Below are positions 1 through 11,980 of a stretch of DNA of 11,980 nt, in pieces. Below the pieces are notes generated by a model. That model did not search any database, was not told the DNA's origin, and saw only the letters and a list, made by a program, of their open reading frames with translations. A program made the translations under genes and the position numbers. Position 1 is the stretch's first letter; each line of letters begins with the position of its first letter. The stretch comes from a virus (taxonomy: Duplodnaviria > Heunggongvirae > Uroviricota > Caudoviricetes), in IMG/VR virus record IMGVR_UViG_2537562191_000041, positions 1 to 11,980 of that record; one strand, 5' to 3'.

Positions 1-2
1 AA

Positions 3-194
3 GCAATGACTGAATTGCTTGACCGTTACGTTGCAGCCGGTGCGCTGGTTACTCCACGTGACAAATCCCAGGGCGAAGATCCATATGTTGTTCAGGTTGT
101 CCAAAAGGACATCGATCTGTGGGAAGTGTCCTGGTCTGTTTGTCCGACCGGTACAGCTCGCCGAATCGTCGGTAAGCCAATTCTGATGCGCTGA
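3..194 (+). CDS. 3' end of a CDS that probably begins upstream of the window (alternatively a 62-aa ORF from ATG at 6); product unknown
   Basis: Frame is open from the window edge to TGA at 192-194; a GC stem-loop follows 8 bp later; no recognisable motif in the translation. Confidence 0.4.
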   Translation, partial: AMTELLDRYVAAGALVTPRDKSQGEDPYVVQVVQKDIDLWEVSWSVCPTGTARRIVGKPILMR

Positions 195-202
195 TTTATA
201 AC

Positions 203-224
203 CCCCCGCTAAATGATGCGGGGG
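203..224 (+). terminator. GC-rich stem-loop (CCCCCGC / 8-nt loop / GCGGGGG); possible terminator or 5'-leader structure
   Basis: Perfect 7-bp inverted repeat read directly; no U-tract follows, so intrinsic-terminator function is uncertain. Confidence 0.35.
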
Positions 225-238
225 AAAGAGGTTTGAAT

Positions 239-973
239 ATGAAAAATTATACTGCTGATCCTTTTATGCGTGCGATTTTCGGTTCTGGCTGCTTTGAAAG
301 CGGTGATAAATCCACGCAGGACAATAATGATAACGCCATGCTGGAAAGCGCAGGACAGAAAGGAAAGGACACTCAACCAAAGCCCAAAGACGACATTGAA
401 ACCGCGATGATGGAAGCGGTTGAATCCCGTGCACAAGGTGATATGCGCAGCCTGGCAGCGTCCATGCTTGCTGGTTGGGTTGAAGATGGTGATCCGGAGG
501 CTGACTCATTTGATGCATTAGCAATCACTATGGCTGGCCTGGCTGATATCGATGAAGACACCGATTTCACCGATGAGCAAATCGATGCTTATAACGATGC
601 TCTCGCAGCTCTTGCTGATGCAGCTGTTGCGCTTGGCGCTGATCAGGACGATGTAACCGAAATGATCGACGATGAAGATGACTCAGCTGCCGAACGTGTT
701 TATGACGCTCTTTCCGAAAGCGACACCGACATGATGGAAACAGCTATTGCCATTTACACCGTTGCTGGTGGTGATAGCGCAATGCTGGAAGCGGTACGTA
801 AAAAAGTGGTTCGTGATGGCAAGGTTACCATCATCCGTAAACGCCCGCGTCCTCGCCGCATGACGTCATTGCAAAAACAGGCGCTGAAAAAAGCACGCCG
901 CAAAGCACATACATCCGTAGCGAATATCAACCGCAAAAAATCAATGCGCATTCGCAAAAAACGCGGTTTGTAA
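239..973 (+). CDS. hypothetical protein: D/E-rich body with a strongly basic (K/R-rich) C-terminal tail of about 50 residues
   Basis: ATG at 239 preceded by AAAGAGG (225-231) at 7-nt spacing; the ORF-track start at 233 is TTG two codons upstream. Composition read from translation (e.g. IDEDTDFTDEQIDAYNDALAALADAA then RKRPRPRR...KKARRKA...RIRKKRGL). Confidence 0.7.
   Translation: MKNYTADPFMRAIFGSGCFESGDKSTQDNNDNAMLESAGQKGKDTQPKPKDDIETAMMEAVESRAQGDMRSLAASMLAGWVEDGDPEADSFDALAITMAGLADIDEDTDFTDEQIDAYNDALAALADAAVALGADQDDVTEMIDDEDDSAAERVYDALSESDTDMMETAIAIYTVAGGDSAMLEAVRKKVVRDGKVTIIRKRPRPRRMTSLQKQALKKARRKAHTSVANINRKKSMRIRKKRGL
764..771 (+). other. Chi site (5'-GCTGGTGG-3')
   Basis: Exact octamer read on the + strand. 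Confidence 0.6.
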
Positions 974-980
974 GTGACAC

Positions 981-1002
981 AGGCCACCTGCAAAGGTGGC
1001 CT
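981..1002 (+). terminator. hairpin (AGGCCACC / 6-nt loop / GGTGGCCT) just downstream of the 239-973 stop; possible terminator or RNA-stability element
   Basis: Perfect 8-bp inverted repeat read directly; no U-tract. Confidence 0.35.
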
Positions 1003-1022
1003 CTACCTGGGAGAAATAGCGT

Positions 1023-1613
1023 TTGATTTGCGGCGCGATAATGCCTGACGGAATAAGTCCGTTAATGAAGGTTTATATCCTCTCTTCAGAGGATATGGTC
1101 GTCGGTTATATCGGTGAAGGATCTACCGCAGAACTGTCATCAATGTGGCAATCACCATTTGAAAACCAGTCAGTAGGAGGTTTGCTTGGCGGTATTAGCG
1201 CTGCGGCTGGCTCTCTTGCAGATACGCTTCAGACCGCAACCGGCGTAACAACAAAAACCCTCTTCAACTCAATGCTTGTTTGGGAAGGTCAGCAACCGCC
1301 TGAATTTAATCTGGTAATTGATTTCATGGCGACAACGAACGCGCAACTTGAAGTGAACGCAGCCATTACAGCATTGCTGAAGATGGAATCGCCGGAACTG
1401 AACAATGTAGCGCCATTCGGTCGTCGCCCGGAGACAGTAACGTTAAACATAGGTAGGAACATAGCCCTTACCGACGTTGTTATCAAAAGCGTGAGTTACC
1501 AACTGGACGCCCCGCGCACACCGGAAGGCTATTTCACTCATAACACGGTAACCCTGCAATGCAGCGGTAACACATCGATCAACCGTAGCAATATCTCATC
1601 TGTTTTTGTGTAG
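1023..1613 (+). CDS. hypothetical protein, possibly virion-structural (beta-rich, Gly/Ala-rich segment); start codon uncertain (TTG 1023, ATG 1041 or ATG 1065)
   Basis: Long ORF; its stop TAG 1611-1613 overlaps the AGGAG Shine-Dalgarno of the next gene, an operon-like arrangement; GGGAG at 1009-1013 would serve the TTG at 1023. Confidence 0.55.
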   Translation: MICGAIMPDGISPLMKVYILSSEDMVVGYIGEGSTAELSSMWQSPFENQSVGGLLGGISAAAGSLADTLQTATGVTTKTLFNSMLVWEGQQPPEFNLVIDFMATTNAQLEVNAAITALLKMESPELNNVAPFGRRPETVTLNIGRNIALTDVVIKSVSYQLDAPRTPEGYFTHNTVTLQCSGNTSINRSNISSVFV

Positions 1614-1621
1614 GAGTATTT

Positions 1622-2107
1622 ATGTCCGGTTTTGCAAATACAAAAGCCGATATGGCCTTTCTAAAATCCCGGTTTAATAAAAACCTGGCTGCAGGCGAAA
1701 AACTTATTGGTTCTGAATATTGGATGACCATTAAGGGTTACGAACATCTGTCTGTACTAGTTCGTACAGCTCAGTTACCAGAAATGACACGTGAAGATGT
1801 GGAGGATTACGCCCCTGGTGGCATGAAATTCAACCAGCACGGACCATTACGCAACTCTGGTGAATTTCAGGTCACATGCGCGGAAACTATCGAAGGCGCA
1901 GTTCTCGCCGCTGTAAAACAGATGGTATACGGAAAAGAATATCTGGAAATTACCTTACAGGCGGCGGCTGAATCGAATAGCGGTAACCATAAAGGTCTGA
2001 TCCGCACATATTCTCATTGCAAAGTGTATTCCGACGCCGTGGATTTCTCATCCGAAGACGTAACGGCGGTCGTTAAACTGAACCGCCCCGGAAATCCTGG
2101 AGACTAA
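1622..2107 (+). CDS. hypothetical protein whose native C-terminus has been replaced by an IS insertion; current reading frame runs about 10 codons into the IS left end
   Basis: ATG 1622 with AGGAG (1612-1616) at 5-nt spacing; the IS left inverted repeat begins at 2079 inside the ORF, so the final residues (LNRPGNPGD) are IS-encoded. Weak pattern resemblance to tail-tube-type proteins, not verified. Confidence 0.6.
2076..2078 (+). repeat. left copy of 3-bp target-site duplication (AAC) of the IS
   Basis: AAC immediately abuts the IS left end and is repeated at 3389-3391. Confidence 0.6.
2079..2105 (+). repeat. IS left terminal inverted repeat (IRL)
   Basis: TGAACCGCCCCGGAAATCCTGGAGACT matches the reverse complement of 3362-3388 with about 4 mismatches. 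Confidence 0.7.
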
Positions 2108-2132
2108 ACTCCCTGAGAAAGAGGTAAACAGG

Positions 2133-2459
2133 ATGACTAAAAATACTCGTTTTTCCCCCGAAGTCCGTCAGCGGGCGATTCGTATGGTTCTGGAAAGTCA
2201 GGATGAATATGACTCACAGTGGGCGGCAATTTGTTCCATTGCCCCAAAGATTGGCTGTACGCCGGAGACTCTGCGTGTCTGGGTTCGCCAGCATGAGCGG
2301 GATACCGGGGGCGGTGATGGTGGGCTCACCAGCGCTGAACGTCAGCGTCTGAAAGAGCTGGAACGTGAAAATCGTGAACTGCGCCGCAGTAACGATATCC
2401 TTCGCCAGGCTTCCGCTTATTTTGCGAAGGCGGAGTTCGACCGCCTCTGGAAAAAATGA
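2133..2459 (+). CDS. IS3-family transposase OrfA (helix-turn-helix / leucine-zipper part)
   Basis: 108-aa ORF starting [19 protein letters not shown], recognised from memory as the IS629-group orfA; GAGG Shine-Dalgarno upstream; ends within the A6 slippery run. Confidence 0.85.
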
Positions 2460-3346
2460 TGCCACTGCTGGATAAGCTGCGTGAGCAGTACGGGGTCGGA
2501 CCGGTATGCAGCGAACTGCATATTGCCCCGTCAACGTATTACCATTGTCAGCAACAGCGACATCATCCGGATAAACGCAGTGCCCGTGCGCAGCACGACG
2601 ACTGGCTGAAGAGAGAGATACAGCGCGTATACGATGAAAATCATCAGGTGTACGGTGTGCGTAAAGTCTGGCGTCAGTTGTTACGGGAAGGAATCAGGGT
2701 GGCCAGATGTACAGTGGCACGTCTCATGGCGGTTATGGGACTTGCCGGTGTTCTCCGGGGTAAAAAGGTCCGTACGACCATCAGCCGGAAAGCCGTTGCC
2801 GCAGGCGACCGCGTAAACCGTCAGTTCGTGGCAGAACGACCTGACCAGCTGTGGGTGGCTGATTTTACTTACGTCAGCACATGGCAGGGCTTCGTCTATG
2901 TGGCGTTTATCATTGATGTGTTTGCCGGATACATCGTGGGGTGGCGGGTCTCATCGTCTATGGAAACGACATTCGTGCTGGATGCGCTGGAGCAGGCGTT
3001 GTGGGCCCGTCGTCCGTCTGGCACCATCCATCACAGCGATAAAGGCTCTCAGTATGTGTCACTGGCCTATACGGAGCGACTAAAAGAAGCCGGATTACTG
3101 GCATCAACAGGGAGTACAGGCGACTCGTATGACAACGCGATGGCTGAGAGCATCAATGGTCTTTACAAAGCGGAGGTAATACACCGTAAGAGCTGGAAAA
3201 ACCGTGCAGAAGTGGAACTGGCCACACTAACGTGGGTGGACTGGTATAACAATCGACGATTGCTGGGAAGGCTGGGCCATACTCCTCCGGCAGAAGCAGA
3301 AAAAGCTTATTATGCTTCCATCGGAAACGATGATCTGGCAGCCTGA
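2456..3346 (+). CDS. IS3-family transposase OrfB (DDE catalytic domain); probably expressed as an OrfAB fusion by -1 frameshift
   Basis: 296-aa ORF in the -1 frame relative to orfA, overlapping at AAAAAATGA; contains the HSDKGSQY and [15 protein letters not shown] motifs typical of the IS3 DDE transposase. Confidence 0.85.
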
Positions 3347-3361
3347 GTTCACAGATAAAAC

Positions 3362-3388
3362 ACTCTCCAGGAAACCCGGGGCGGTTCA
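3362..3388 (+). repeat. IS right terminal inverted repeat (IRR)
   Basis: Reverse complement TGAACCGCCCCGGGTTTCCTGGAGAGT pairs with IRL. Confidence 0.7.
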
Positions 3389-3391
3389 AAC
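3389..3391 (+). repeat. right copy of 3-bp target-site duplication (AAC)
   Basis: Identical to 2076-2078, immediately after the terminal CA of the IS. Confidence 0.6.
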
Positions 3392-3433
3392 CTTCTCTGC
3401 GCATTGTTTACAACTGGGCGGAATAATCCCTAT
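3392..3433 (+). other. displaced original 3' end of the IS-interrupted gene 1622-2107 (would encode ...VK-PSLRIVYNWAE-stop)
   Basis: Deleting the IS plus one AAC copy restores the same frame, which continues to TAA at about 3431-3433; a CCCGCC/GGCGGG stem-loop follows at about 3436-3452. Confidence 0.5.
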
Positions 3434-3480
3434 CCCGCCCTTGTGGCGGGAACATCCTTGTTATTGAGTTGTAGGCAACA

Positions 3481-4032
3481 ATGACACCAATTGAATTATT
3501 AGAAAGCGTTAAAGAGCGATTTAATCCGCTGCTTGTGCGTGAAGAAGAAACGTTGAAAGCATTCCTGATCAAAGCTCTGACCACGTATCAGGACAGGGCA
3601 GGGGTAGTGAAAACGTTAAAACTTGAAAAAGCTGGTGGTACTGCAATCCCGTTGCCAGAAGATTATCTCTCTCTGGTTCAGGTTACCGACAACAACGGCT
3701 TGTTGGTCTATTCGGATGAATTATCCGGATTTATTGAATTAGAACTAACAGGTTCAGAACGCTGGCCTTTTCGAATGCTGTATCTGGTTAATCTACGCGA
3801 CAGAAAGCTGGATGAATGGCAAGTGCCTCCTGCAATCATTGGAATGCTGGAGGAATATCTGGAGGCGCTTATCAATGTAAGAAATGTCGCCCGGCAGCGT
3901 AGAGCGTCCATCGACGGGAAATTTGACTACTCCGATCTGCCCGATGAAGCCACGCTATATGCCCGCGTGCAGGAGATTGAGGAAAAAATGTCCTCAAACC
4001 GGGCCATTATTCCGGGGGCTACCATTTTTTAA
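3481..4032 (+). CDS. hypothetical protein (183 aa)
   Basis: ATG ORF with a weak AGG Shine-Dalgarno; no recognisable motif; transcribed in the same direction as neighbouring structural-type genes. Confidence 0.55.
   Translation: MTPIELLESVKERFNPLLVREEETLKAFLIKALTTYQDRAGVVKTLKLEKAGGTAIPLPEDYLSLVQVTDNNGLLVYSDELSGFIELELTGSERWPFRMLYLVNLRDRKLDEWQVPPAIIGMLEEYLEALINVRNVARQRRASIDGKFDYSDLPDEATLYARVQEIEEKMSSNRAIIPGATIF
3630..3637 (+). other. Chi site (5'-GCTGGTGG-3')
   Basis: Exact octamer read on the + strand. Confidence 0.6.
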
Positions 4033-4047
4033 CGCTGGAGGCGCAGA

Positions 4048-4755
4048 GTGAGTATTTTCAGCAGCGTTGGTAGAACGTTGACCACCGCATTGTCATTTAA
4101 CACGAAATCATTCACCAGCAACCTCATTAGCGACATTCTTGATAAAGCCATATCAGGCGGCGGGGTAAGCGGGAATTACAGTAGCGATATTGCCTACGGG
4201 AAAAATATTGTTGCTGCCGCTATGCGTATCCGTTACGCCCAGGGGTGGCAGTGGACCGTTGAAGTGGATGGCCTGAACGGCTTCGATATGTTCGTGAAGG
4301 ATATCACCTACAGCAGTGGAAACATTGAGACAGAAAGCAAGGTGATCGGCAGCGTAGAATTCAGCAAGCCAACCTATGTTAGCGCCGGACCGGTCACTAT
4401 GACCGTGAGGGATACCGAAGATGGCAAGATCATGGACTGGTTCAAAGAGCGTCGTTCTCGTGTAACAAATCCTGATGGAACAATAAACCTTCCTCCTGAA
4501 TATCTGATGAAAATCCGTGTCTACCGGGTAACTCAGGACGGCGGAAAAGAACTGGAAGAAGAAATGCGCGTATTTCCTACGCAACTTGGGGAAATCACAC
4601 GCTCACGTGATCAGGTGTCAGAGTTCTTGTCATACCCAATCACTTTCCAGAAATACACATCCGCAGGCTCAGGTGTTTCTGCTTTGGTCAACGGTGCCGC
4701 GGGCATGGCTACAAGTGCGTTAAAGGGGGCTATCAGTGGAGTGATCAAATTCTGA
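4048..4755 (+). CDS. hypothetical protein (235 aa), beta-rich with Gly/Ala-rich C-terminus; GTG start
   Basis: GTG at 4048 preceded by GGAGG (4037-4041) at 6-nt spacing; ORF ends 12 bp before the first incA-like iteron. Confidence 0.6.
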   Translation: MSIFSSVGRTLTTALSFNTKSFTSNLISDILDKAISGGGVSGNYSSDIAYGKNIVAAAMRIRYAQGWQWTVEVDGLNGFDMFVKDITYSSGNIETESKVIGSVEFSKPTYVSAGPVTMTVRDTEDGKIMDWFKERRSRVTNPDGTINLPPEYLMKIRVYRVTQDGGKELEEEMRVFPTQLGEITRSRDQVSEFLSYPITFQKYTSAGSGVSALVNGAAGMATSALKGAISGVIKF

Positions 4756-4767
4756 AATGCTTTAATT

Positions 4768-4989
4768 ATGTGTGCTGTAGGGAAAGGTTTACGTTAAATG
4801 TGTGCTGCCGGGAAACCCCATTGCTCAAGATGTGTTGTAGAGGGAATGGTAATGGCAACATGTGTGCTGGAGGGGAATTTCGCATGTAAAGAGCGTCATT
4901 TATCCCGCCAGCACACATCTGAACTAAGCAATCCTCTGAAATTCCCTCCACCACACATCCAGACATGAAACTATCCCTTCAGCACACAT
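4768..4989. repeat. incA-like iteron array downstream of repA: seven copies of the ATGTGTGCTGnnGGGAA-type repeat, four in one orientation and three inverted
   Basis: Iteron cores read at 4768, 4798, 4830, 4860 (ATGTGTGCTG orientation, ~30-bp phasing; the third is degenerate) and at 4909, 4949, 4980 (CAGCACACAT orientation); the last abuts the repA stop. Confidence 0.8.
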
Positions 4990-5850
4990 TTAATCTGTTG
5001 GTTTAAGTTTCGGATTCCGAGAGTGAACGATAATGAAGTTTTCACGACCTTGCTTTTCAATGGTGCAATCGAGATAACCTATTGTTTTTAACTGTTCTAT
5101 AGCTTTTTTTATCGTTCTGTTTTGCTCACTTACCGATGACATCAAGGCTAATCTTTCACGTATTCTGGCAAATGAAATAGGTATTGGACGTGCCGGGAGG
5201 CTTTCTATAAAGGTATATATGGCCTGGGCTGCTTCTTTTTTAGGTAAAGCGCGAAGTGCGTGTTGCTGTAGAAGCACCCGATAGTCTAGCTGGAAGATTT
5301 CCCATAACTTGGAATCAGCCTCCAGTTCAACGACATCTGTTTCAAAGCCAAAATATCCCGTTTTAAGCAGGCCAGTATTGTAGCTTCCACGAGCACTTTT
5401 CCCTCTTTTGAATGAGATGCCTTTGTTGCGTAACCGACCTAAAGAATCGTGGATCGTGTTTCTTAATTTCCCATCAAGTCGCTTAGATGGAAATCCGCAC
5501 GCCTTTGCAAATTCTTGAAAAGAAAGGCGAATTGTATTCGATGATAAGCCATACTTGCTAAATGAGTAGATTACCCCAATCCAGACTTTGAAATCAGTAT
5601 CCATGTCCAAGCGAGGGCCAGTGATCTTGATGTTGTCGTAGCCTTCTGCTTGAGCTATTTCCAGTTTGGAAAAAACAGATGATGCATCTATCTCGTTGTT
5701 TTCACCCTGTTTTTTAGTTGGTTTAGGGACGAAAACACCAAGCCGCATAAGTGCGACAGGTTGAACAGTATTGTTCGAATTAACTGTTAATTCTTTAGCC
5801 TTGCTTTCAATGTCAGCATAAAGAATATCAGAGATAAATGACTTATCCAT
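4990..5850 (-). CDS. repA: iteron-binding replication initiator RepA, P1 / RepFIB family
   Basis: 286-aa ORF (from ATG at 5850; the ORF track starts one codon earlier at TTG 5853) flanked on both sides by repeats matching the P1-type 19-bp iteron; the N-terminus MDKSFISDILYADIESKAKE resembles my memory of P1 RepA. Confidence 0.9.
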   Translation of the reverse strand: MDKSFISDILYADIESKAKELTVNSNNTVQPVALMRLGVFVPKPTKKQGENNEIDASSVFSKLEIAQAEGYDNIKITGPRLDMDTDFKVWIGVIYSFSKYGLSSNTIRLSFQEFAKACGFPSKRLDGKLRNTIHDSLGRLRNKGISFKRGKSARGSYNTGLLKTGYFGFETDVVELEADSKLWEIFQLDYRVLLQQHALRALPKKEAAQAIYTFIESLPARPIPISFARIRERLALMSSVSEQNRTIKKAIEQLKTIGYLDCTIEKQGRENFIIVHSRNPKLKPTD

Positions 5851-5908
5851 CAATAAGTTACCGTCATGTTGTGAATAAAGTTTACGACAGTGGATATCCG
5901 GCTTTTTT

Positions 5909-6011
5909 TCCCGTCAGCACACATCCTACATCCCGTCAGCACACATGTAAAACCCTCCAGCACACATATTTTTCCCGTCAGCACACATCATTTTCCCTCC
6001 AGCACACATCT
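5909..6011. repeat. incC-like iteron array upstream of repA: five direct iterons at 21-22-bp phasing, probably containing the autoregulated repA promoter
   Basis: CAGCACACAT cores start at 5915, 5937, 5958, 5979 and 6000, all in the same orientation as repA transcription. Confidence 0.85.
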
Positions 6012-6055
6012 GAATAGTGGTTAAAGCCTTATGTGGCGCGGCCTGAAGAGCTACG

Positions 6056-6118
6056 GGATCTATTTGGTACTATATGGATCTAATCAGGATCTATATATTG
6101 GATCTATCCTGTGGATAA
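6056..6118. promoter_or_regulatory. oriR-like replication origin core: four GGATCTA heptamers (each with a Dam GATC site) and a consensus DnaA box
   Basis: GATC at 6057, 6077, 6088 and 6101 inside the repeated heptamer GGATCTA; TGTGGATAA at 6110-6118 is the reverse complement of TTATCCACA; an A-rich tract follows. Confidence 0.75.
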
Positions 6119-6204
6119 AAAAGAAGAATTACAAAGCTCCACCCAATTTCACACACTACCTATCCTCCAACGAATAAACAGACATCTGCTTATCGGAGGA
6201 ATAC

Positions 6205-7026
6205 TTGAACATTCCAAAATTCCCATTGCCTTCCCGTCCTGAGACAGAAATTCAGTTCCACGCCCCTACCGTGAAGGATGCGCTGAAATATTCTGACCTG
6301 AACCCGGCAGAAGATGAGGCAACTACTACAGAGTACCTTAACTCTATGCAGGATGGTGAAATTAACGACAGTGCTTACTGGACAGTCCAGGATCGCAGAA
6401 CTGCCCTTTGGTGGATATTTGTTAATTCGCGCCCCGATGCAGTAATGACTTACTCCTATGAGTGCAGTCACTGCGGTAATACGCATCACGCCGATATAAA
6501 CCTGAGCGATCTGGCTCAAACAGTAGAGATACTCACTGTACCGCCTTACGTAAAAACCAACGTACCGGTAAACGGTGTACCAACTGACTGGATACTTAAA
6601 CCATTAACCGGGAAAGGCGCGGAACTCCTTGAACGTATGCGTGCGTCACTTCCTGATATGAAAAGCCCTGAATACAGTGCAGGCGTGGCCCGTATGCGCA
6701 TTGCAGAACTCGCTTTATGCACGGCACTGGACGACGATCCGGAAGACTTCACTCAAGCAGCTAACCGACGCTTCGACATCATTGAAAGCATGGCGCTTGA
6801 AACCGAGTTTACACCGCTTGTGGCTCGCATACAGCTTATGCAAAAAGACCTACGCCACGGCCTGAAAATGTCTATTGAGAGAGGCACAAGCCGACTGATC
6901 CTGCCTCCGCAACATTGCAAAAACGCTAAGGAGGGTGCAGATGTGACAACCACACTGTACGTCCCCTTTCTCAATAGAGAGTTTATCCCATCAATTAGAT
7001 CTGAATGGATGGCTAACCATTATTAA
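6205..7026 (+). CDS. hypothetical protein (273 aa) immediately upstream of the tape-measure-like gene; possibly a tail assembly or accessory protein; TTG start
   Basis: TTG at 6205 preceded by GGAGG (6194-6198) at 6-nt spacing; the first in-frame ATG is about 47 codons downstream; contains a CSHC pair. Confidence 0.55.
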   Translation: MNIPKFPLPSRPETEIQFHAPTVKDALKYSDLNPAEDEATTTEYLNSMQDGEINDSAYWTVQDRRTALWWIFVNSRPDAVMTYSYECSHCGNTHHADINLSDLAQTVEILTVPPYVKTNVPVNGVPTDWILKPLTGKGAELLERMRASLPDMKSPEYSAGVARMRIAELALCTALDDDPEDFTQAANRRFDIIESMALETEFTPLVARIQLMQKDLRHGLKMSIERGTSRLILPPQHCKNAKEGADVTTTLYVPFLNREFIPSIRSEWMANHY

Positions 7027-7172
7027 CAACCTGACTCTATATGGATATCAGCCCGTTAGCGACGTTGAACAATTACCGCAATGGCGAGCACTCCATATGT
7101 CAAAAGCCCTAGAAGAAAAATACAAAGCTCAAGCCGGGAAACGTTGATCGCGCTGGTAAAAGAGAGGTTATT

Positions 7173-10100
7173 TTGAAAGAGAATAAAGACCGTATCGCAA
7201 TAATTGACGCTATTCAGGAAGCGAGCACAAACGAACTTAAAGCTCTTGCTGAGGTAAAAGACGCCATTCTTTCTGGGGCAAGCACCATAACTCAACAGGA
7301 CGAAAGGCAAGGCAGAGTTAGCAACAGACTATCACGCAGGCGTAAAGAGTACGAGCAAAGTACATCTGATAGCGTTAGAGATGTCCAAACTAACCCATAT
7401 AAAAAACGTCTCACTGCTAAAAAGGAAAGGGCACCGATAAACCAAACCGTGGACCGCGCTATCGTTGCAACGAACACACCAGAAAGTGTTCGCTCCGTGC
7501 AATCACGTCAGACCATCCGAAAATCGGACGGTTTTATACCGGTAGCTGCTAATTCAGCCCCTCTTGAACCACAATCCCCCCAAAGTCTAAAAGGCCCGCT
7601 GCGGGATAGTAATGGACGTTTTGTATCCCAGAAAAGCAATGAGGATGTAGCCAGAAAAAAAGAAATGCAGAACGCACGTAAAGCCGACGCAAAATTACAA
7701 GCTGGCTTTCTCAGAAAGCTAGGTTCCATTATGGGGGTAGATGGCAATCAGTCTTCCAGTGAAGAGTCTTTAACAAATGCAGCTGGTGTCGGTGCTGGTG
7801 GGCCGTTATGGATGGCGGCTCGTGGCATGTACGACATAACTAAAGAGATCACAGGTAAAGCAGAATCTCTTAAAGAATGGGTAGAAAAGGGGAAAAAAGA
7901 AACATCAACCTCGAAAGCGATATCACCAGTAATTACTTATCCGGCGGCGGTGAATTCTCAAAAAGCAACATCTGCAAAAGCGTTCAATAACGCTGTTGAG
8001 ACAAAATCCGCACAAGCAGTAGAAGAGCAAACCAAAATCCTTCAGACCAATGACAACAAAATAATTGATGGTCTGGAAAATGTTTCTGACGAGATAGTTA
8101 AGCTTCGGAAATCAGTGTCTTCTGGAAATAAGTTCGGCTTAAGTGATCTCTGGAAAAATCGAGCAAGCAGAAGAAATAAAATCAATATTGGTGATCGGGC
8201 GGGAAAAAATAAACGGAACACATCGAAAAGGAAAGGCCACAATCTTGGGAAAAAAGCACTCTCCGTTGGCGAAAAAGTTGCTGCCGGTAGCGCTGCAGCT
8301 GGCACTGGTGTCGGAACAGCCAAAGCAGTTAAAAATAAGATCAGCAAACCCAAAGATGTAAGCACTATCAGCGATACATCAAAGGGGATTGCAAAGGAAA
8401 CAAAAAATACTGCTAAGGCCGTGAAGTCAGCTGGTGTTGTGGCTGAAGATACTACCATTAAAACCGGCGAAGCCATTGCAAAGAAAAAAACTGAATCTGT
8501 AGCCCTCAAAAGTGCTGCAAAAATAGGTGTTAAATCAGCAGCATCCACAGCGGCAAGAGCGGTCCCTATCATCGGTTCGCTGGCAATGGCTGGATATGAC
8601 GCCATAGATGGTTACACAGATATAGAGGCGCAAAAGGCAGCCTTTGGTTTAAGTGACGATGATGCTGTATCCGAACAGCAAAAAACGGCTTACGCAACAG
8701 CTAATGTGCTCGATATGGGGGGCTTGGTGTCGGGCGCAACAAACTTGATAGGGAAAGGAATTTCTGCGCTAGGATTTGAAAGAGCTGGTGAAAAACTTCA
8801 GAATTTTGATACCGGAGATATTGCTCGTGGTGTTAACGGTGCAGTAGATATCACCAAATCTGTTTTTGGTAGCCTTAAGGATACATTTTTATCCACTGAC
8901 GAAAACACGAAACAAGTAAAAAAAGCGGTTGAGGATGGCACCAAGAAGACCGTCGATGCGATTCATTCTTTAGGTGAGCAGCTACAAGGCGGGCGTGATG
9001 GTGAAGATGGTGTTGGTGAGCACGGGTATACTTCCCCGGCTGAATTTAATGCCCCTGCCAGCAACACCATTGCAGCGGATCTGAATATTGGTGGCAGCAA
9101 CGCTAAAAACCGCAATTACCGGAATAATAACCTCGGCAACCTTGTTTTCGCTAATCAGGAAGGGGCTGCGCTGGAAGCACCAAATGCAAAAGGTGAACAA
9201 CGTTTTGCGCGATTTAACACGCCTGAAGAAGGGATCAGGGCGCTGGCAAACCAGGTGTCAAGCTATTACAACGGCACCAGCGCCGCTGCTGGGTATCAGA
9301 AGCTACAGACGGTATCCAGTATTATTTCCAAATGGGCACCCCCAAAGGAGAACAATACTAATCAATATATTGATAACGTCAGCAAATATCTTGGCGTCTC
9401 GCCTAATGAAAAAATAGACGTCAGCAACCCAGAAGTTATGACGCAATTAGTTCGTGCAATAGCGACGAAAGAAGGTGGAAACCCGGCGGTTAACAATGAG
9501 TTCATAAAGAATGCTCTTGGGGCATTTAACACAAACACTGGTCGATGGGAGGGACAATTCTCTGACGAAACATTGGCGCGGATTAATAAAATTCAGAAAG
9601 AAAATGGTGGTCAGCTAATTGCCCGCGATTCGCAATATAGTGTTGGTCGCAAGGTAAAATATGCTAATGGAAAATCTCCAGCTCAACCAGTTTTGAATGC
9701 CGTTCCGACAGCAACACAACAGCCAATTGAGGTTGCACAACATGCCCAGGCAGTCAAAAAGCCACAAAAAACAGGCAATCAATCGCAACCGATTAATCCA
9801 GAGAATGTTGATGTTAATACTGGCTCGCCATCAAGTCTGCTTGAGAGATTAATCGCTATAAATGACAGCGGGGTAGGTAATTTATTTGGAGGTGCGGCTA
9901 CCAGCATTGCTGGTACAAGCCTTGGCCTGATTAAGGATTTTGCGTCGGCGACTTCGTTTGGTTCTATATCTTCGCTTTCCGAAAAAGCGAAAGGAATGGA
10001 TCAGGCTCTTACTGAAAAGATATCCAGCTTAACCGGTAAATCTTTTGGATTTCAAAAAGCAAGCCAGGTAACTGATATAAGAGACGCTTTACAAAAAAGA

Positions 10101-10823
10101 CCAAAAGCTGAACGCGATATGCCTTCAGTGGATCTTCTTTCCGGTGTTTCTTCGGCAAGTGAGAGTGAAAAAATCTCTGTAAACTCAAGGGGGATTCCAG
10201 TTTATGACAATGGATACAAGGTAATTGATGGTGAAGATAAGGGGGTGCTTGGCTCTTTGTTTGACTCGTCATTAACAGGTCTGAAACGTATTAGCTCTGC
10301 TGTGTTACCTGCAATTGGCGATAACGTTTCACGACTTATTGGTGGGGTAGATGGCACTGGCATTGTTAATGATTTGGTTTATCAGGCTACTGGGCAGAAC
10401 TCAACAATTGCGAGGGCTATTAGCCCGCTTACCAGGAGCGCCGGTAGTTGGCTGAATAATGGTATTCAACAAACCGCAGATAGCATTAGAGGTATATCAA
10501 ACGAAGCCAATAATGCCATATTTGGCTCTGCGTCAGCCGTGCAAGAACCTTTTCTTGCTATGCCACCACAGCTTCCTACTGTAACAGATCTCGCACGAAG
10601 CGGAATAAGACAACCATTAACTACTGACACTATAAATAACGATCCTGCTATGTTGAAGGCGCTGGATAACATCTGCTCTATCCTGAACGACCTTCTGAAT
10701 GTGAACAAGAACAATACAAAAGGCGATCCGGATAAGGTTGTCAAAACATCGCAGCCGCAACCGCGACCACGTGCTAGCACAACTATTAATGACCCGTCGC
10801 TGGATGCTCTGCTTGAGGATTAA
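7173..10823 (+). CDS. large virion protein (1216 aa), tape-measure / Sit-like injection protein with a globular domain embedded in its C-terminal half
   Basis: TTG at 7173 is the only start codon after the in-frame TAG at 7110-7112 and has AAGAGAGG at 6-nt spacing; long A/G/K/S-rich helical-type sequence with hydrophobic Gly-rich stretches; followed directly by baseplate-type genes. Confidence 0.75.
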   Translation: MKENKDRIAIIDAIQEASTNELKALAEVKDAILSGASTITQQDERQGRVSNRLSRRRKEYEQSTSDSVRDVQTNPYKKRLTAKKERAPINQTVDRAIVATNTPESVRSVQSRQTIRKSDGFIPVAANSAPLEPQSPQSLKGPLRDSNGRFVSQKSNEDVARKKEMQNARKADAKLQAGFLRKLGSIMGVDGNQSSSEESLTNAAGVGAGGPLWMAARGMYDITKEITGKAESLKEWVEKGKKETSTSKAISPVITYPAAVNSQKATSAKAFNNAVETKSAQAVEEQTKILQTNDNKIIDGLENVSDEIVKLRKSVSSGNKFGLSDLWKNRASRRNKINIGDRAGKNKRNTSKRKGHNLGKKALSVGEKVAAGSAAAGTGVGTAKAVKNKISKPKDVSTISDTSKGIAKETKNTAKAVKSAGVVAEDTTIKTGEAIAKKKTESVALKSAAKIGVKSAASTAARAVPIIGSLAMAGYDAIDGYTDIEAQKAAFGLSDDDAVSEQQKTAYATANVLDMGGLVSGATNLIGKGISALGFERAGEKLQNFDTGDIARGVNGAVDITKSVFGSLKDTFLSTDENTKQVKKAVEDGTKKTVDAIHSLGEQLQGGRDGEDGVGEHGYTSPAEFNAPASNTIAADLNIGGSNAKNRNYRNNNLGNLVFANQEGAALEAPNAKGEQRFARFNTPEEGIRALANQVSSYYNGTSAAAGYQKLQTVSSIISKWAPPKENNTNQYIDNVSKYLGVSPNEKIDVSNPEVMTQLVRAIATKEGGNPAVNNEFIKNALGAFNTNTGRWEGQFSDETLARINKIQKENGGQLIARDSQYSVGRKVKYANGKSPAQPVLNAVPTATQQPIEVAQHAQAVKKPQKTGNQSQPINPENVDVNTGSPSSLLERLIAINDSGVGNLFGGAATSIAGTSLGLIKDFASATSFGSISSLSEKAKGMDQALTEKISSLTGKSFGFQKASQVTDIRDALQKRPKAERDMPSVDLLSGVSSASESEKISVNSRGIPVYDNGYKVIDGEDKGVLGSLFDSSLTGLKRISSAVLPAIGDNVSRLIGGVDGTGIVNDLVYQATGQNSTIARAISPLTRSAGSWLNNGIQQTADSIRGISNEANNAIFGSASAVQEPFLAMPPQLPTVTDLARSGIRQPLTTDTINNDPAMLKALDNICSILNDLLNVNKNNTKGDPDKVVKTSQPQPRPRASTTINDPSLDALLED
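7794..7801 (+). other. Chi site (5'-GCTGGTGG-3')
   Basis: Exact octamer read on the + strand. Confidence 0.6.
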
Positions 10824-10828
10824 TACAG

Positions 10829-11203
10829 ATGCTTTATGAAATAGACGCAAGACTTCAAACGAATGAGAGCGGTGTCATTATTGCAGAAGGAAGTACCGCA
10901 GCATGGATGGCCCGACTTGACGAGTGGCTACGAACCCCTGAAGGGAGTGTTTATGGTTTACCCTCTTGGGGGAATCCAATGGAAGAATTTAAGCATGAAC
11001 CATTCGGCTCTGAAACTTCGCACATAGTTGAAGTGGCTATTGAAGGGAGAATGATGAAAAAACTACGACAAGACTTGCCAGGTTTGGATGTGGAGGGGAT
11101 TCGTTGCACATCAATTTCTGAAGATTCTTTATTAATTAGTTTTTATGCGAAAGGTGGGAGCATGGATATTGTTATGCAGAAATCAAGTGGGGTGGGCGCG
11201 TGA
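10829..11203 (+). CDS. baseplate wedge protein, gp25 / GPW-like (124 aa)
   Basis: Size and motif pattern (TPEGSVYGLPSWGNPMEEF...IVEVAIEG...DLPGLDVEGI) fit the gp25/GPW family as I remember it; position directly after the tape-measure-like gene. Confidence 0.55.
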   Translation: MLYEIDARLQTNESGVIIAEGSTAAWMARLDEWLRTPEGSVYGLPSWGNPMEEFKHEPFGSETSHIVEVAIEGRMMKKLRQDLPGLDVEGIRCTSISEDSLLISFYAKGGSMDIVMQKSSGVGA

Positions 11204-11980
11204 CGATTACAGAATTACTGGACAAATTTAACGCTAAGTTAAATGAAAACACATGGTGGTCACGATTTGTAAATAGTCAGTTTGTGCAGATGCACGCTAT
11301 ATTCGGATCACAGCTTATTTATATTGCCCGTACATTTGCAAGCCGCGGCCTCACTGAGGGACTTATTTCAACGGCTACGCGCCGCTCAAGTATTTTAGCG
11401 GTTGCTGAAGACCGTAGTTACGTAGGGCGATTTGTTAGTGCTTCATACGGAACAACGTCTATAACTAATAAAACTGATCGGGATATTACGTTACCAGCCG
11501 GGGCTGAATTGCTTGCCAATGACCAAACACCTTTGGCAATTATTAATAGTGTTGTAATTCCTGCTGGAGGAACTGTTTCTGGCGTAGAAACTAAACAGCA
11601 TGAAGCTGTTAGCGTTACATTTGATATTGAGAAGGAAACTTTATTTCTGACATTGTTGCTTTCCAGAGAGTTAACAAAAGAAGTCTCCAGCCTGGATGTT
11701 TATGTTATTACAGATGGCGTAGAAGAAAAATGGACATATAACCCATTATTTAGAATGTCCAGAGACAAGAGTAAGCACTATTCATTGGCATATAAACCTA
11801 CAGAACAACTTGGAGTCAAGTTTGGTGATGGTTCTATGGGTATGATGCCTCCAGCAGGCTGTCAGGTTCGAATCGATGTTATGGCTAGCCTTGGCGACTA
11901 TACTTTGGCTGAAGGACAAAAGTTAGAACCGGCTGGAAATATCGCTCAATATGTGGAGTCACTAGAGTTTAAAACTGATT
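11200..11980 (+). CDS. baseplate J-like protein, N-terminal part (continues beyond the window)
   Basis: GTG at 11200 overlaps the upstream TGA as GTGA, suggesting translational coupling; frame is open to the window end (about 260 codons); assignment is by position after the gp25-like gene and general composition only. Confidence 0.5.
   Translation, partial: MTITELLDKFNAKLNENTWWSRFVNSQFVQMHAIFGSQLIYIARTFASRGLTEGLISTATRRSSILAVAEDRSYVGRFVSASYGTTSITNKTDRDITLPAGAELLANDQTPLAIINSVVIPAGGTVSGVETKQHEAVSVTFDIEKETLFLTLLLSRELTKEVSSLDVYVITDGVEEKWTYNPLFRMSRDKSKHYSLAYKPTEQLGVKFGDGSMGMMPPAGCQVRIDVMASLGDYTLAEGQKLEPAGNIAQYVESLEFKTD

Follow-up and report, generated by a model that had tools for sequence, protein, structure and literature searches.

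The gene 21 product of a D6-like P1-family phage-plasmid carries capsid-type protease sites and is probably a prohead-internal precursor

The gene 21 locus

The DNA analysed here, referred to as the window, is a stretch of 11,980 nt (positions 1 to 11,980 of the IMG/VR virus record IMGVR_UViG_2537562191_000041), and the subject of this work is its homologue of phage P1 gene 21. At positions 1-2079 and 3389-11980 it shares 98-99% identity with Escherichia phage D6, a plasmid prophage of the P1 family, and positions 1-2074 are 100% identical to the 92.9-kb E. coli plasmid NZ_AP018804.1. The sequence identifies the window as belonging to a D6-like P1-family phage-plasmid, in line with the family membership proposed in a preliminary description of this DNA. 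The genes lie in the order 22 (sheath, 3' end), 21, pmgG, bplB, IS629, pmgC, tub, a repA-like gene on the minus strand, pmgB, sit and pmgA.

Gene 21 opens with an ATG at 239 and ends with a stop codon at 971-973. The preliminary description had assigned it a product of 245 aa; the gene stands, and the length is corrected to 244 aa, the stop codon having been counted. The protein shares 41-44% aa identity with P1 gp21 and falls into PHROG 1053 ('unknown function'; E = 3.4e-85 across residues 1-244), and searches of Pfam, NCBIfam and PDB with the full protein returned noise only. Gene 21 is labelled 'baseplate or tail tube' in the records of both P1 and D6 as well as in the gene table of PMC10695390; the product names of its homologues in databases are 'tail tube protein Gp21' and 'putative baseplate protein', and D6 orf47 bears the note 'similar to P1 gene 21'. 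The gene was already known, but its function was not, and no discussion of P1 gp21 was found in the literature searched.

Predicted structure and the basic domain

The division into an acidic body and a basic tail seen in the preliminary description is borne out by the charge count. Residues 1-184 hold 46 D+E and 10 K+R (net -36), and residues 185-244 hold 25 K+R and 1 D+E (net +24, isoelectric point (pI) 12). In the AlphaFold2 model, which has a mean predicted local distance difference test (pLDDT) score of 73, confidently predicted helical and basic domains are flanked and separated by low-confidence stretches, and two of the predicted protease sites described below (sites 1 and 2) fall in these stretches (Table 1). 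An acidic alpha-helical body, which is a trait of core and scaffold proteins, is present according to both the charge count and the model.

The basic domain is the best-conserved part of the family. Its consensus reads KVVRxGK...AQKAALKKARRKAHT...RxKSMxxRK and, judged from this conservation, it is a true conserved module, more than a biased composition; a profile of the domain gave noise only in Pfam, NCBIfam and PDB sequence searches. SP15-like phages of Listeria and Bacillus have this domain as well, as part of a protein encoded a few genes after a T4-type protease and the major capsid protein (MCP) gene, and in these proteins an L-x-E motif stands directly before it. Some family members (P0199 and P0247) hold two tandem basic domains with acidic spacers between them, an arrangement that would fit the design of a polyprotein of basic peptides. 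On a 222-kb SP15-like IMG/VR contig (L082, 5485-8002), the MCP gene is apparently split by an HNH-type endonuclease open reading frame (6542-7348), probably an intron or intein-like insertion, and a PHROG 1053 homologue lies a few genes downstream of the split gene.

Capsid-type protease sites in the gene 21 protein

The precursor of the P1 capsid protein gp23 is cut after E120 in the context KAMLE/SVAAEM, the mature N-terminus SVAAEM having been obtained by Edman sequencing (PMC9024508), and the corresponding context in D6 gp23 is KAMFE/SVAQSM. The window protein contains three A-M-(L/F/M)-E/(S/A) sites that match this capsid maturation site: NAMLE36/SA (site 1), TAMME59/AV (site 1b) and SAMLE184/AV (site 2). 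The three Glu residues are conserved among 117 homologues, although the N-terminal region is otherwise variable (Table 1).

The motif is also highly restricted in the genome. In the six frames of the 91-kb D6 genome, AM[LF]E[SA] occurs 6 times and only in gp23, DarA, Pro (twice) and the D6 counterpart of the window protein (twice), whereas shuffles of D6 give 0.10 expected occurrences (maximum 2 in 500). Within gp21, 3 sites are observed versus 0.004 expected. The D6 DarA site is AMFE65/S66, and in P1 residues 1-69 of DarA are invisible in the cryo-electron microscopy (cryo-EM) map of the mature head and a piece of ~9 kDa is known to be removed. P1 itself has looser sites with the same placement, namely AMLE/S in gp23, LLE68/A in DarA and several in Pro. 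The reach of the motif extends well beyond the close relatives: a profile search for the gp21 family retrieved 490 clusters, in whose distant members a hydrophobic-x-E/D-small motif still stands at the junction with the basic domain.

Moreover, the sites in gp21 vary together with that of the capsid protein. The capsid site (the residue aligned to P1 E120), gp21 site 1 and gp21 site 2 were compared in 50 non-redundant IMG/VR loci and read D/D/D in 27, E/E/E in 22 and E/-/E in 1, with 0 discordant, and ~3 switches between Glu and Asp are needed on a rough MCP tree. In an Asp-type genome, the Pro homologue has LLLD/SA at residue 187 where D6 Pro has LMLE/SA at residue 169, a match of position only between unaligned proteins.

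Taken together, the restriction of the motif, its conservation, its reach and its co-variation indicate that the sites are not due to chance. The simplest reading of these sequences is that one protease would recognise the capsid, DarA, Pro and gp21 sites, and from the match of the sites and their co-variation we infer that gp21 is cleaved as well. As all of the sites would be read by one protease that works inside the prohead, gp21 is probably a precursor of the prohead interior (a core, scaffold-type or internal protein) that is cut by Pro, and not a part of the tail or baseplate. Among the roles that the preliminary description had considered, the conserved and co-varying capsid-type sites thus favour that of a scaffolding or internal virion protein; no sequence or fold homology to a known scaffold was found.

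The protease role of Pro was taken from the literature, and Pfam and PDB sequence searches gave no match by which Pro could be classified. RefSeq calls the D6 pro homologue (NC_050154.1, 22494-23492) 'tail fiber protein', a label that PHROG 1801 shares and that looks like a propagated misannotation. Pro has four or five M-x-E/S sites in its C-terminal half, and their presence suggests that it may process itself. In the N-terminal 120 residues of D6 gp23 (locus L001, 5345-5710), the further candidate sites VMME/N and PMFE/G lie upstream of AMFE/S, which suggests a stepwise degradation of the gp23 propeptide like that in T4 and phiKZ.

Gene order, virion data and alternative roles

All 80 of the IMG/VR loci whose length allowed the order to be seen, very distant ones included, have MCP-sheath-21-PmgG-tube-PmgC-Tub-PmgB-Sit, and gene 21 has the same position, between the sheath gene and pmgG, in D6 and P1. 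This fixed order rules out a mobile cassette and an accessory anti-defence gene. The sheath gene lies between the MCP gene and gene 21, which follows two to four genes further downstream and is far from pro; in SP15-like phages, the homologue comes three to four genes after the protease and MCP genes. The order cannot tell a head role from a tail role, because PmgC, a head-side adaptor (PMC12810830), is encoded in the same string.

In a table of P1 virion proteins detected with liquid chromatography-tandem mass spectrometry (LC-MS/MS), gp21 is absent and the products of its neighbours BplB, PmgG, gp22 and gp23 are listed. Trypsin would give peptides of at most 10 aa from the basic domain and peptides of 31 and 83 aa, the shorter one semi-tryptic, from the acidic domain. 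The absence of gp21 therefore says little either way, since hardly any tryptic peptide from either half would be usable. The head, connector, tail and baseplate of P1 are covered by cryo-EM papers (including PMC12810830) that name the proteins identified in these structures, and the term 'gp21' is absent from the papers.

These data bear on the database names, according to which gp21 would be a structural subunit of the baseplate or tail tube. The inherited annotation is the sole argument for such a subunit, and against it stand the lack of gp21 in the cryo-EM papers and in the LC-MS/MS table as well as the predicted fold, which is all-helical with a basic hairpin-helix-helix and not of the tube-type beta kind. 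We regard a structural tail part as most improbable.

A different proposal, made in the preliminary description, was that of a DNA-mimic anti-restriction or nucleoid-targeting protein that is packaged and then ejected into the host. The acidic domain, with a net charge of -32 over 125 aa, has a suitable composition, the heads of P1-family phages package anti-restriction proteins (DarA, DarB and others), the protease sites imply entry into the head, and a retained acidic fragment would escape trypsin-based LC-MS/MS. However, composition is all that links gp21 to such proteins: no sequence or fold match to any DNA mimic was found, and gene 21 is present in every relative at a fixed place in the late structural string, unlike the patchy accessory anti-defence genes. 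By T4 precedent, acidic core fragments leave the head. Moreover, P1 gene 21 scored as essential by CRISPR interference (CRISPRi) in a host test that was not about restriction, although the knock-down is probably polar, silencing pmgG and bplB as well. An injected DNA mimic is thus very unlikely.

The gene order and the virion data can also be read in favour of a non-structural assembly factor of the tail or baseplate, a chaperone that would use its acidic body to hold the tube, sheath or tape-measure protein and its basic tail to bind the acidic lumen of the tube; in that case the motifs resembling protease sites would be coincidental or serve another shared partner. The sheath-21-PmgG-tube-PmgC-Tub-PmgB-Sit string in every locus long enough, the 'baseplate or tail tube' label of the P1 and D6 records and the PMC10695390 table, the absence of gp21 from the virion and the electronegative lumen of the P1 tube are all as expected for such a factor. 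The lambda chaperones gpG and gpGT are likewise acidic, non-virion proteins encoded among tail genes. Unlike their genes, gene 21 does not lie between the tube and tape-measure genes, as it is pmgB that directly precedes the tape-measure gene, and position by itself is no proof of a tail role when the head-side adaptor PmgC is part of the same string. Reading of the sequence revealed no frameshift of the G/GT type, and this idea was rejected: the AAAAAA run at 956-961 lies out of register and does not form an in-frame X_XXY_YYZ heptamer, and a -1 shift at this run would lengthen the product by only ~21 codons before the frame closes, with no fusion to pmgG. Finally, gpG/gpGT-type chaperones have no reason to carry capsid-protease sites, and a chaperone leaves unexplained that the gp21 motif is that of the capsid, that it is restricted in D6 to a few proteins and that Glu and Asp co-switch in 50 of 50 loci. 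We therefore consider a tail chaperone unlikely and retain the prohead-internal precursor as the preferred reading.

Evidence against a role in the head

Several points weigh against placing gp21 inside the prohead. A scaffolding-like domain of 120 aa is present at the N-terminus of P1 gp23 itself, so that a separate scaffold is not strictly needed. In addition, the sites in P1 gp21 are looser than those in the window protein (LME/S, ILE/A and MLTE/A), site 1b lies within a predicted helix, which makes its accessibility uncertain in the model, and the acidic domain is predicted as a compact bundle and not as the elongated coiled coil typical of scaffolds. Gene 21 always lies between the sheath gene and tube-related genes, and its inherited label points to a tail role. 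This label reportedly goes back to the amber mutants of complementation group '21' of Walker and Walker, from 1983, which are said to make heads but no tails. Such mutants could be polar on pmgG or bplB, or located in one of these genes.

Comparison with known head proteins

In T4, the gp21 protease cuts L/I-x-E/ sites in gp22, gp67, gp68 and the internal proteins (PMC9026906). The P1-type gp21 shares with these core proteins an acidic helical body, as in gp22, and a basic product, as in the internal proteins IPI-III; both have several short hydrophobic-x-Glu/ sites per protein, of the type also found in the capsid protein, and both are encoded among head and tail late genes. Unlike the T4 core proteins, to which it has no detectable sequence or fold relation, gp21 combines an acidic globular and a conserved basic domain in one polypeptide, its gene follows the sheath gene and is not beside that of the protease, and its cleavage is only predicted. 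Closer to hand, DarA and the gp23 propeptide of P1 are known Pro substrates with the same type of site near a domain boundary. DarA differs in that it is dispensable and keeps a large mature body attached to the capsid, whereas gp21 has three sites, leaves no fragment in any map and scored as essential in the probably polar knock-down.

Scaffolds of the P22 gp8 type consist of a helical body and a basic C-terminal helix-turn-helix that binds the coat protein, and they are recycled uncut. In gp21, too, the helical body leads into a small, basic C-terminal domain with two helices, which is the best-conserved part; unlike in P22, a protease site lies between the body and the basic domain, there is no homology and the basic domain is far more charged (+24 in 60 aa). 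In adenovirus pVII and pre-Mu, as well as in the defensins with their anionic pro-pieces, a protease frees a very basic peptide from a precursor. By analogy, the acidic part of gp21 would roughly balance the charge of the basic one (-36 versus +24), although the lineages are unrelated and DNA binding by the phage peptide is only supposed.

Intercistronic hairpins of the late operon

The two GC hairpins on either side of gene 21 are perfect and lie exactly where the preliminary description had placed them (Table 1). Hairpin 1 pairs CCCCCGC (203-209) with GCGGGGG (218-224) at -17.1 kcal/mol (z = -3.2 versus shuffles). Hairpin 2 pairs AGGCCACC(T) with (A)GGTGGCCT (981-989 with 994-1002); its centroid structure, the hairpin alone, has an energy of -17.8 kcal/mol, the minimum free energy of the 61-nt stretch, which includes extra flanking pairs, is -18.5 kcal/mol, and the local z is merely -1.0. 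When a perfect GC hairpin is defined by a stem of at least 7 bp with at least 5 GC, just three are present in the window, after genes 22, 21 and bplB and all within its 962 intergenic nt (8%), and mononucleotide shuffles give 0.87 +/- 1.0 per window. A scan of D6 for perfect stems found hairpins after 22, after bplB and after the MCP/orf50 gene, to which the window adds the one after 21.

Hairpin 1 is limited to the D6 clade, genes 22 and 21 almost abutting in P1 and JK004, and an E. fergusonii plasmid of 82% identity retains its stem with another loop. Hairpin 2 is maintained in relatives via G-U wobbles, and P1 and JK004 have another GC hairpin in the same place. No T-run follows hairpin 1 or 2 and a terminator scan called neither of them; intrinsic (rho-independent) terminators were ruled out because the GC-rich stems lack a U-tract. 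Rfam has no family for the hairpins, its sole match being a frameshift pseudoknot in IS629.

The 'cassette-like' appearance that the preliminary description had drawn from this bracketing does not hold, given that hairpin 1 is confined to one clade, that a third hairpin follows bplB and that the gene order is conserved; synteny and hairpin distribution rule out a cassette or mobile unit. The hairpins are real, and they are ordinary intercistronic mRNA stem-loops of the late operon, not cassette borders. The perfect hairpins of the D6 late string sit after the MCP/orf50, sheath and tube genes, i.e. those of major-copy parts; in the P1 tail, the sheath is made up of 53 rings and the tube of 52 (PMC12810830). 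This placement is a weak hint that the gene 21 product may be needed in quantity too.

Table 1. Features of the gene 21 region and of the protein that it encodes (AF2, AlphaFold2 model)
Feature	Window position	Strand	Residues	Details
Gene 22 (tail sheath), 3' end	1..194	+		99% identity to D6 orf48, labelled 'similar to P1 gene 22'
Intercistronic GC hairpin 1	203..224	+		between genes 22 and 21; 7 bp stem, 8-nt loop
Shine-Dalgarno AGAGG	227..231	+		7 nt before ATG
Gene 21 homologue (D6 orf47)	239..973	+		244 aa, 26.7 kDa; 100% aa identity to D6 orf47
Extra candidate cut site C-F-E20/S	290..301	+		D6-clade insertion; ~17/117 homologues, gapped in the rest
Predicted protease site 1, A33-M-L-E36/S37	335..349	+		E36 in 114/117 homologues; disordered stretch
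Predicted protease site 1b, A56-M-M-E59/A60	404..418	+		E59 in 117/117, A60 in 115/117; start of helix 51-83
Acidic helical domain	416..790	+	60-184	net charge -32, pI 4.05
Predicted protease site 2, A181-M-L-E184/A185	779..793	+		E184 in 116/117; acidic/basic junction
Basic C-terminal domain	791..970	+	185-244	net +24, 7.1 kDa; beta-hairpin and two helices
AF2, disordered			1-47	holds site 1 (pLDDT <50 for 14-47)
AF2, helical domain			51-176	pLDDT ~90
AF2, low-confidence linker			180-186	pLDDT <50; holds site 2
AF2, beta-hairpin			189-198	
AF2, two helices			210-242	pLDDT 82-92
Intercistronic GC hairpin 2	981..1002	+		between genes 21 and pmgG; 9 bp stem, GCAA tetraloop
pmgG	1041..1613	+		D6 orf46
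bplB (tail tube)	1622..2079	+		cut by IS629 ~11 codons before stop
GC hairpin 3 after bplB	3433..3451	+		TCCCGCC CTTGT GGCGGGA; same hairpin in D6 at 48282-48300

Neighbouring genes and IS629

Downstream of gene 21 lies pmgG, whose P1 product is a baseplate tube-linking protein according to cryo-EM (PMC12810830), followed by bplB with its insertion. IS629 occupies 2080-3388 of the window, its ends being TGAACCGCCCCGG and CCGGGGCGGTTCA, and is flanked by the target-site duplication 'aac' at 2077-2079 and 3389-3391; the C-terminal ...PSLRIVYNWAE of BplB is swapped for LNRPGNPGD. Inside the element, the ALIL pseudoknot RF01497 (Rfam, 121 bits) at 2414-2530 corresponds to the IS3-family frameshift signal. 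A phage-plasmid with this insertion in bplB may be unable to build tails. The same element has a second damaged tail gene, sit (tape-measure/transglycosylase; 7041-7172), which starts at 7041 as in D6 and whose codon 24, Trp in D6, is a stop codon; gene 21 is still 100% identical to that of D6. Between tub and pmgB, a repA-like replication initiator gene (Pfam 01051 per the D6 annotation) lies on the minus strand at 4990-5853 and interrupts the late tail-gene string, likewise in D6.

A model for gp21 and its implications

We propose the following sequence of events for gp21 as a prohead-internal precursor. The 26.7-kDa precursor would be made in quantity from the late 23-22-21 mRNA, segments of which would end in protective stem-loops, and it would be nearly charge-balanced because the acidic helical domain offsets the basic C-terminal domain. 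The prohead would form by its co-assembly with the capsid protein, the portal, Pro and DarA/Hdf. Pro would then, as the in silico evidence supports, cut after Glu in M/L-x-E/(S/A) at E36, E59 and E184, the type of site that it also uses on gp23 and DarA, and release small N-terminal pieces, a 13-kDa acidic domain (125 aa) and a 7-kDa basic domain (60 aa, +24). More speculatively, the acidic domain would exit as DNA enters, and the basic domain would remain on the DNA or on the inner capsid surface.

A possible but doubtful extension of this model is that the basic domain is the payload, a protamine-like peptide kept with the packaged DNA and perhaps entering the cell. Equally tentative is the notion that such a payload spans P1-like phage-plasmids and SP15-like jumbo phages, the acidic domain acting as a charge-neutralising pro-piece until the protein is inside the prohead. 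If true, one of the best-studied phages would harbour a class of phage DNA-associated head peptide that has gone unrecognised; neither product would be caught by trypsin-based virion proteomics or by icosahedral cryo-EM.

The role of a protease-processed head-core protein is of a known kind, and the gp21 family would fill it without relation to known scaffolds; what sets the family apart is that a cut site links its acidic domain with a conserved basic one. P1 ranks among the classic model phages, and phage-plasmids related to it are widespread in Enterobacterales. Two recent structural and proteomic studies describe P1 as having no separate scaffolding protein (PMC9024508 and PMC12810830), and the 'baseplate or tail tube' label has stayed on gene 21 while other proteins were assigned by cryo-EM to the named positions of the tail. 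If the prohead-internal assignment is true, a P1 gene scored as essential would gain a new role, maybe as the scaffold or core protein that P1 seemed to be 'missing', and a missing player would be added to the assembly of P1 heads and to the control of their size (DarA/Hdf, small heads). Under the same assignment, ~490 protein clusters (PHROG 1053), extending into phages of Gram-positive hosts, could be annotated. The capsid M/L-x-E/D/ site also offers a simple rule by which head-internal proteins can be found in this phage group.

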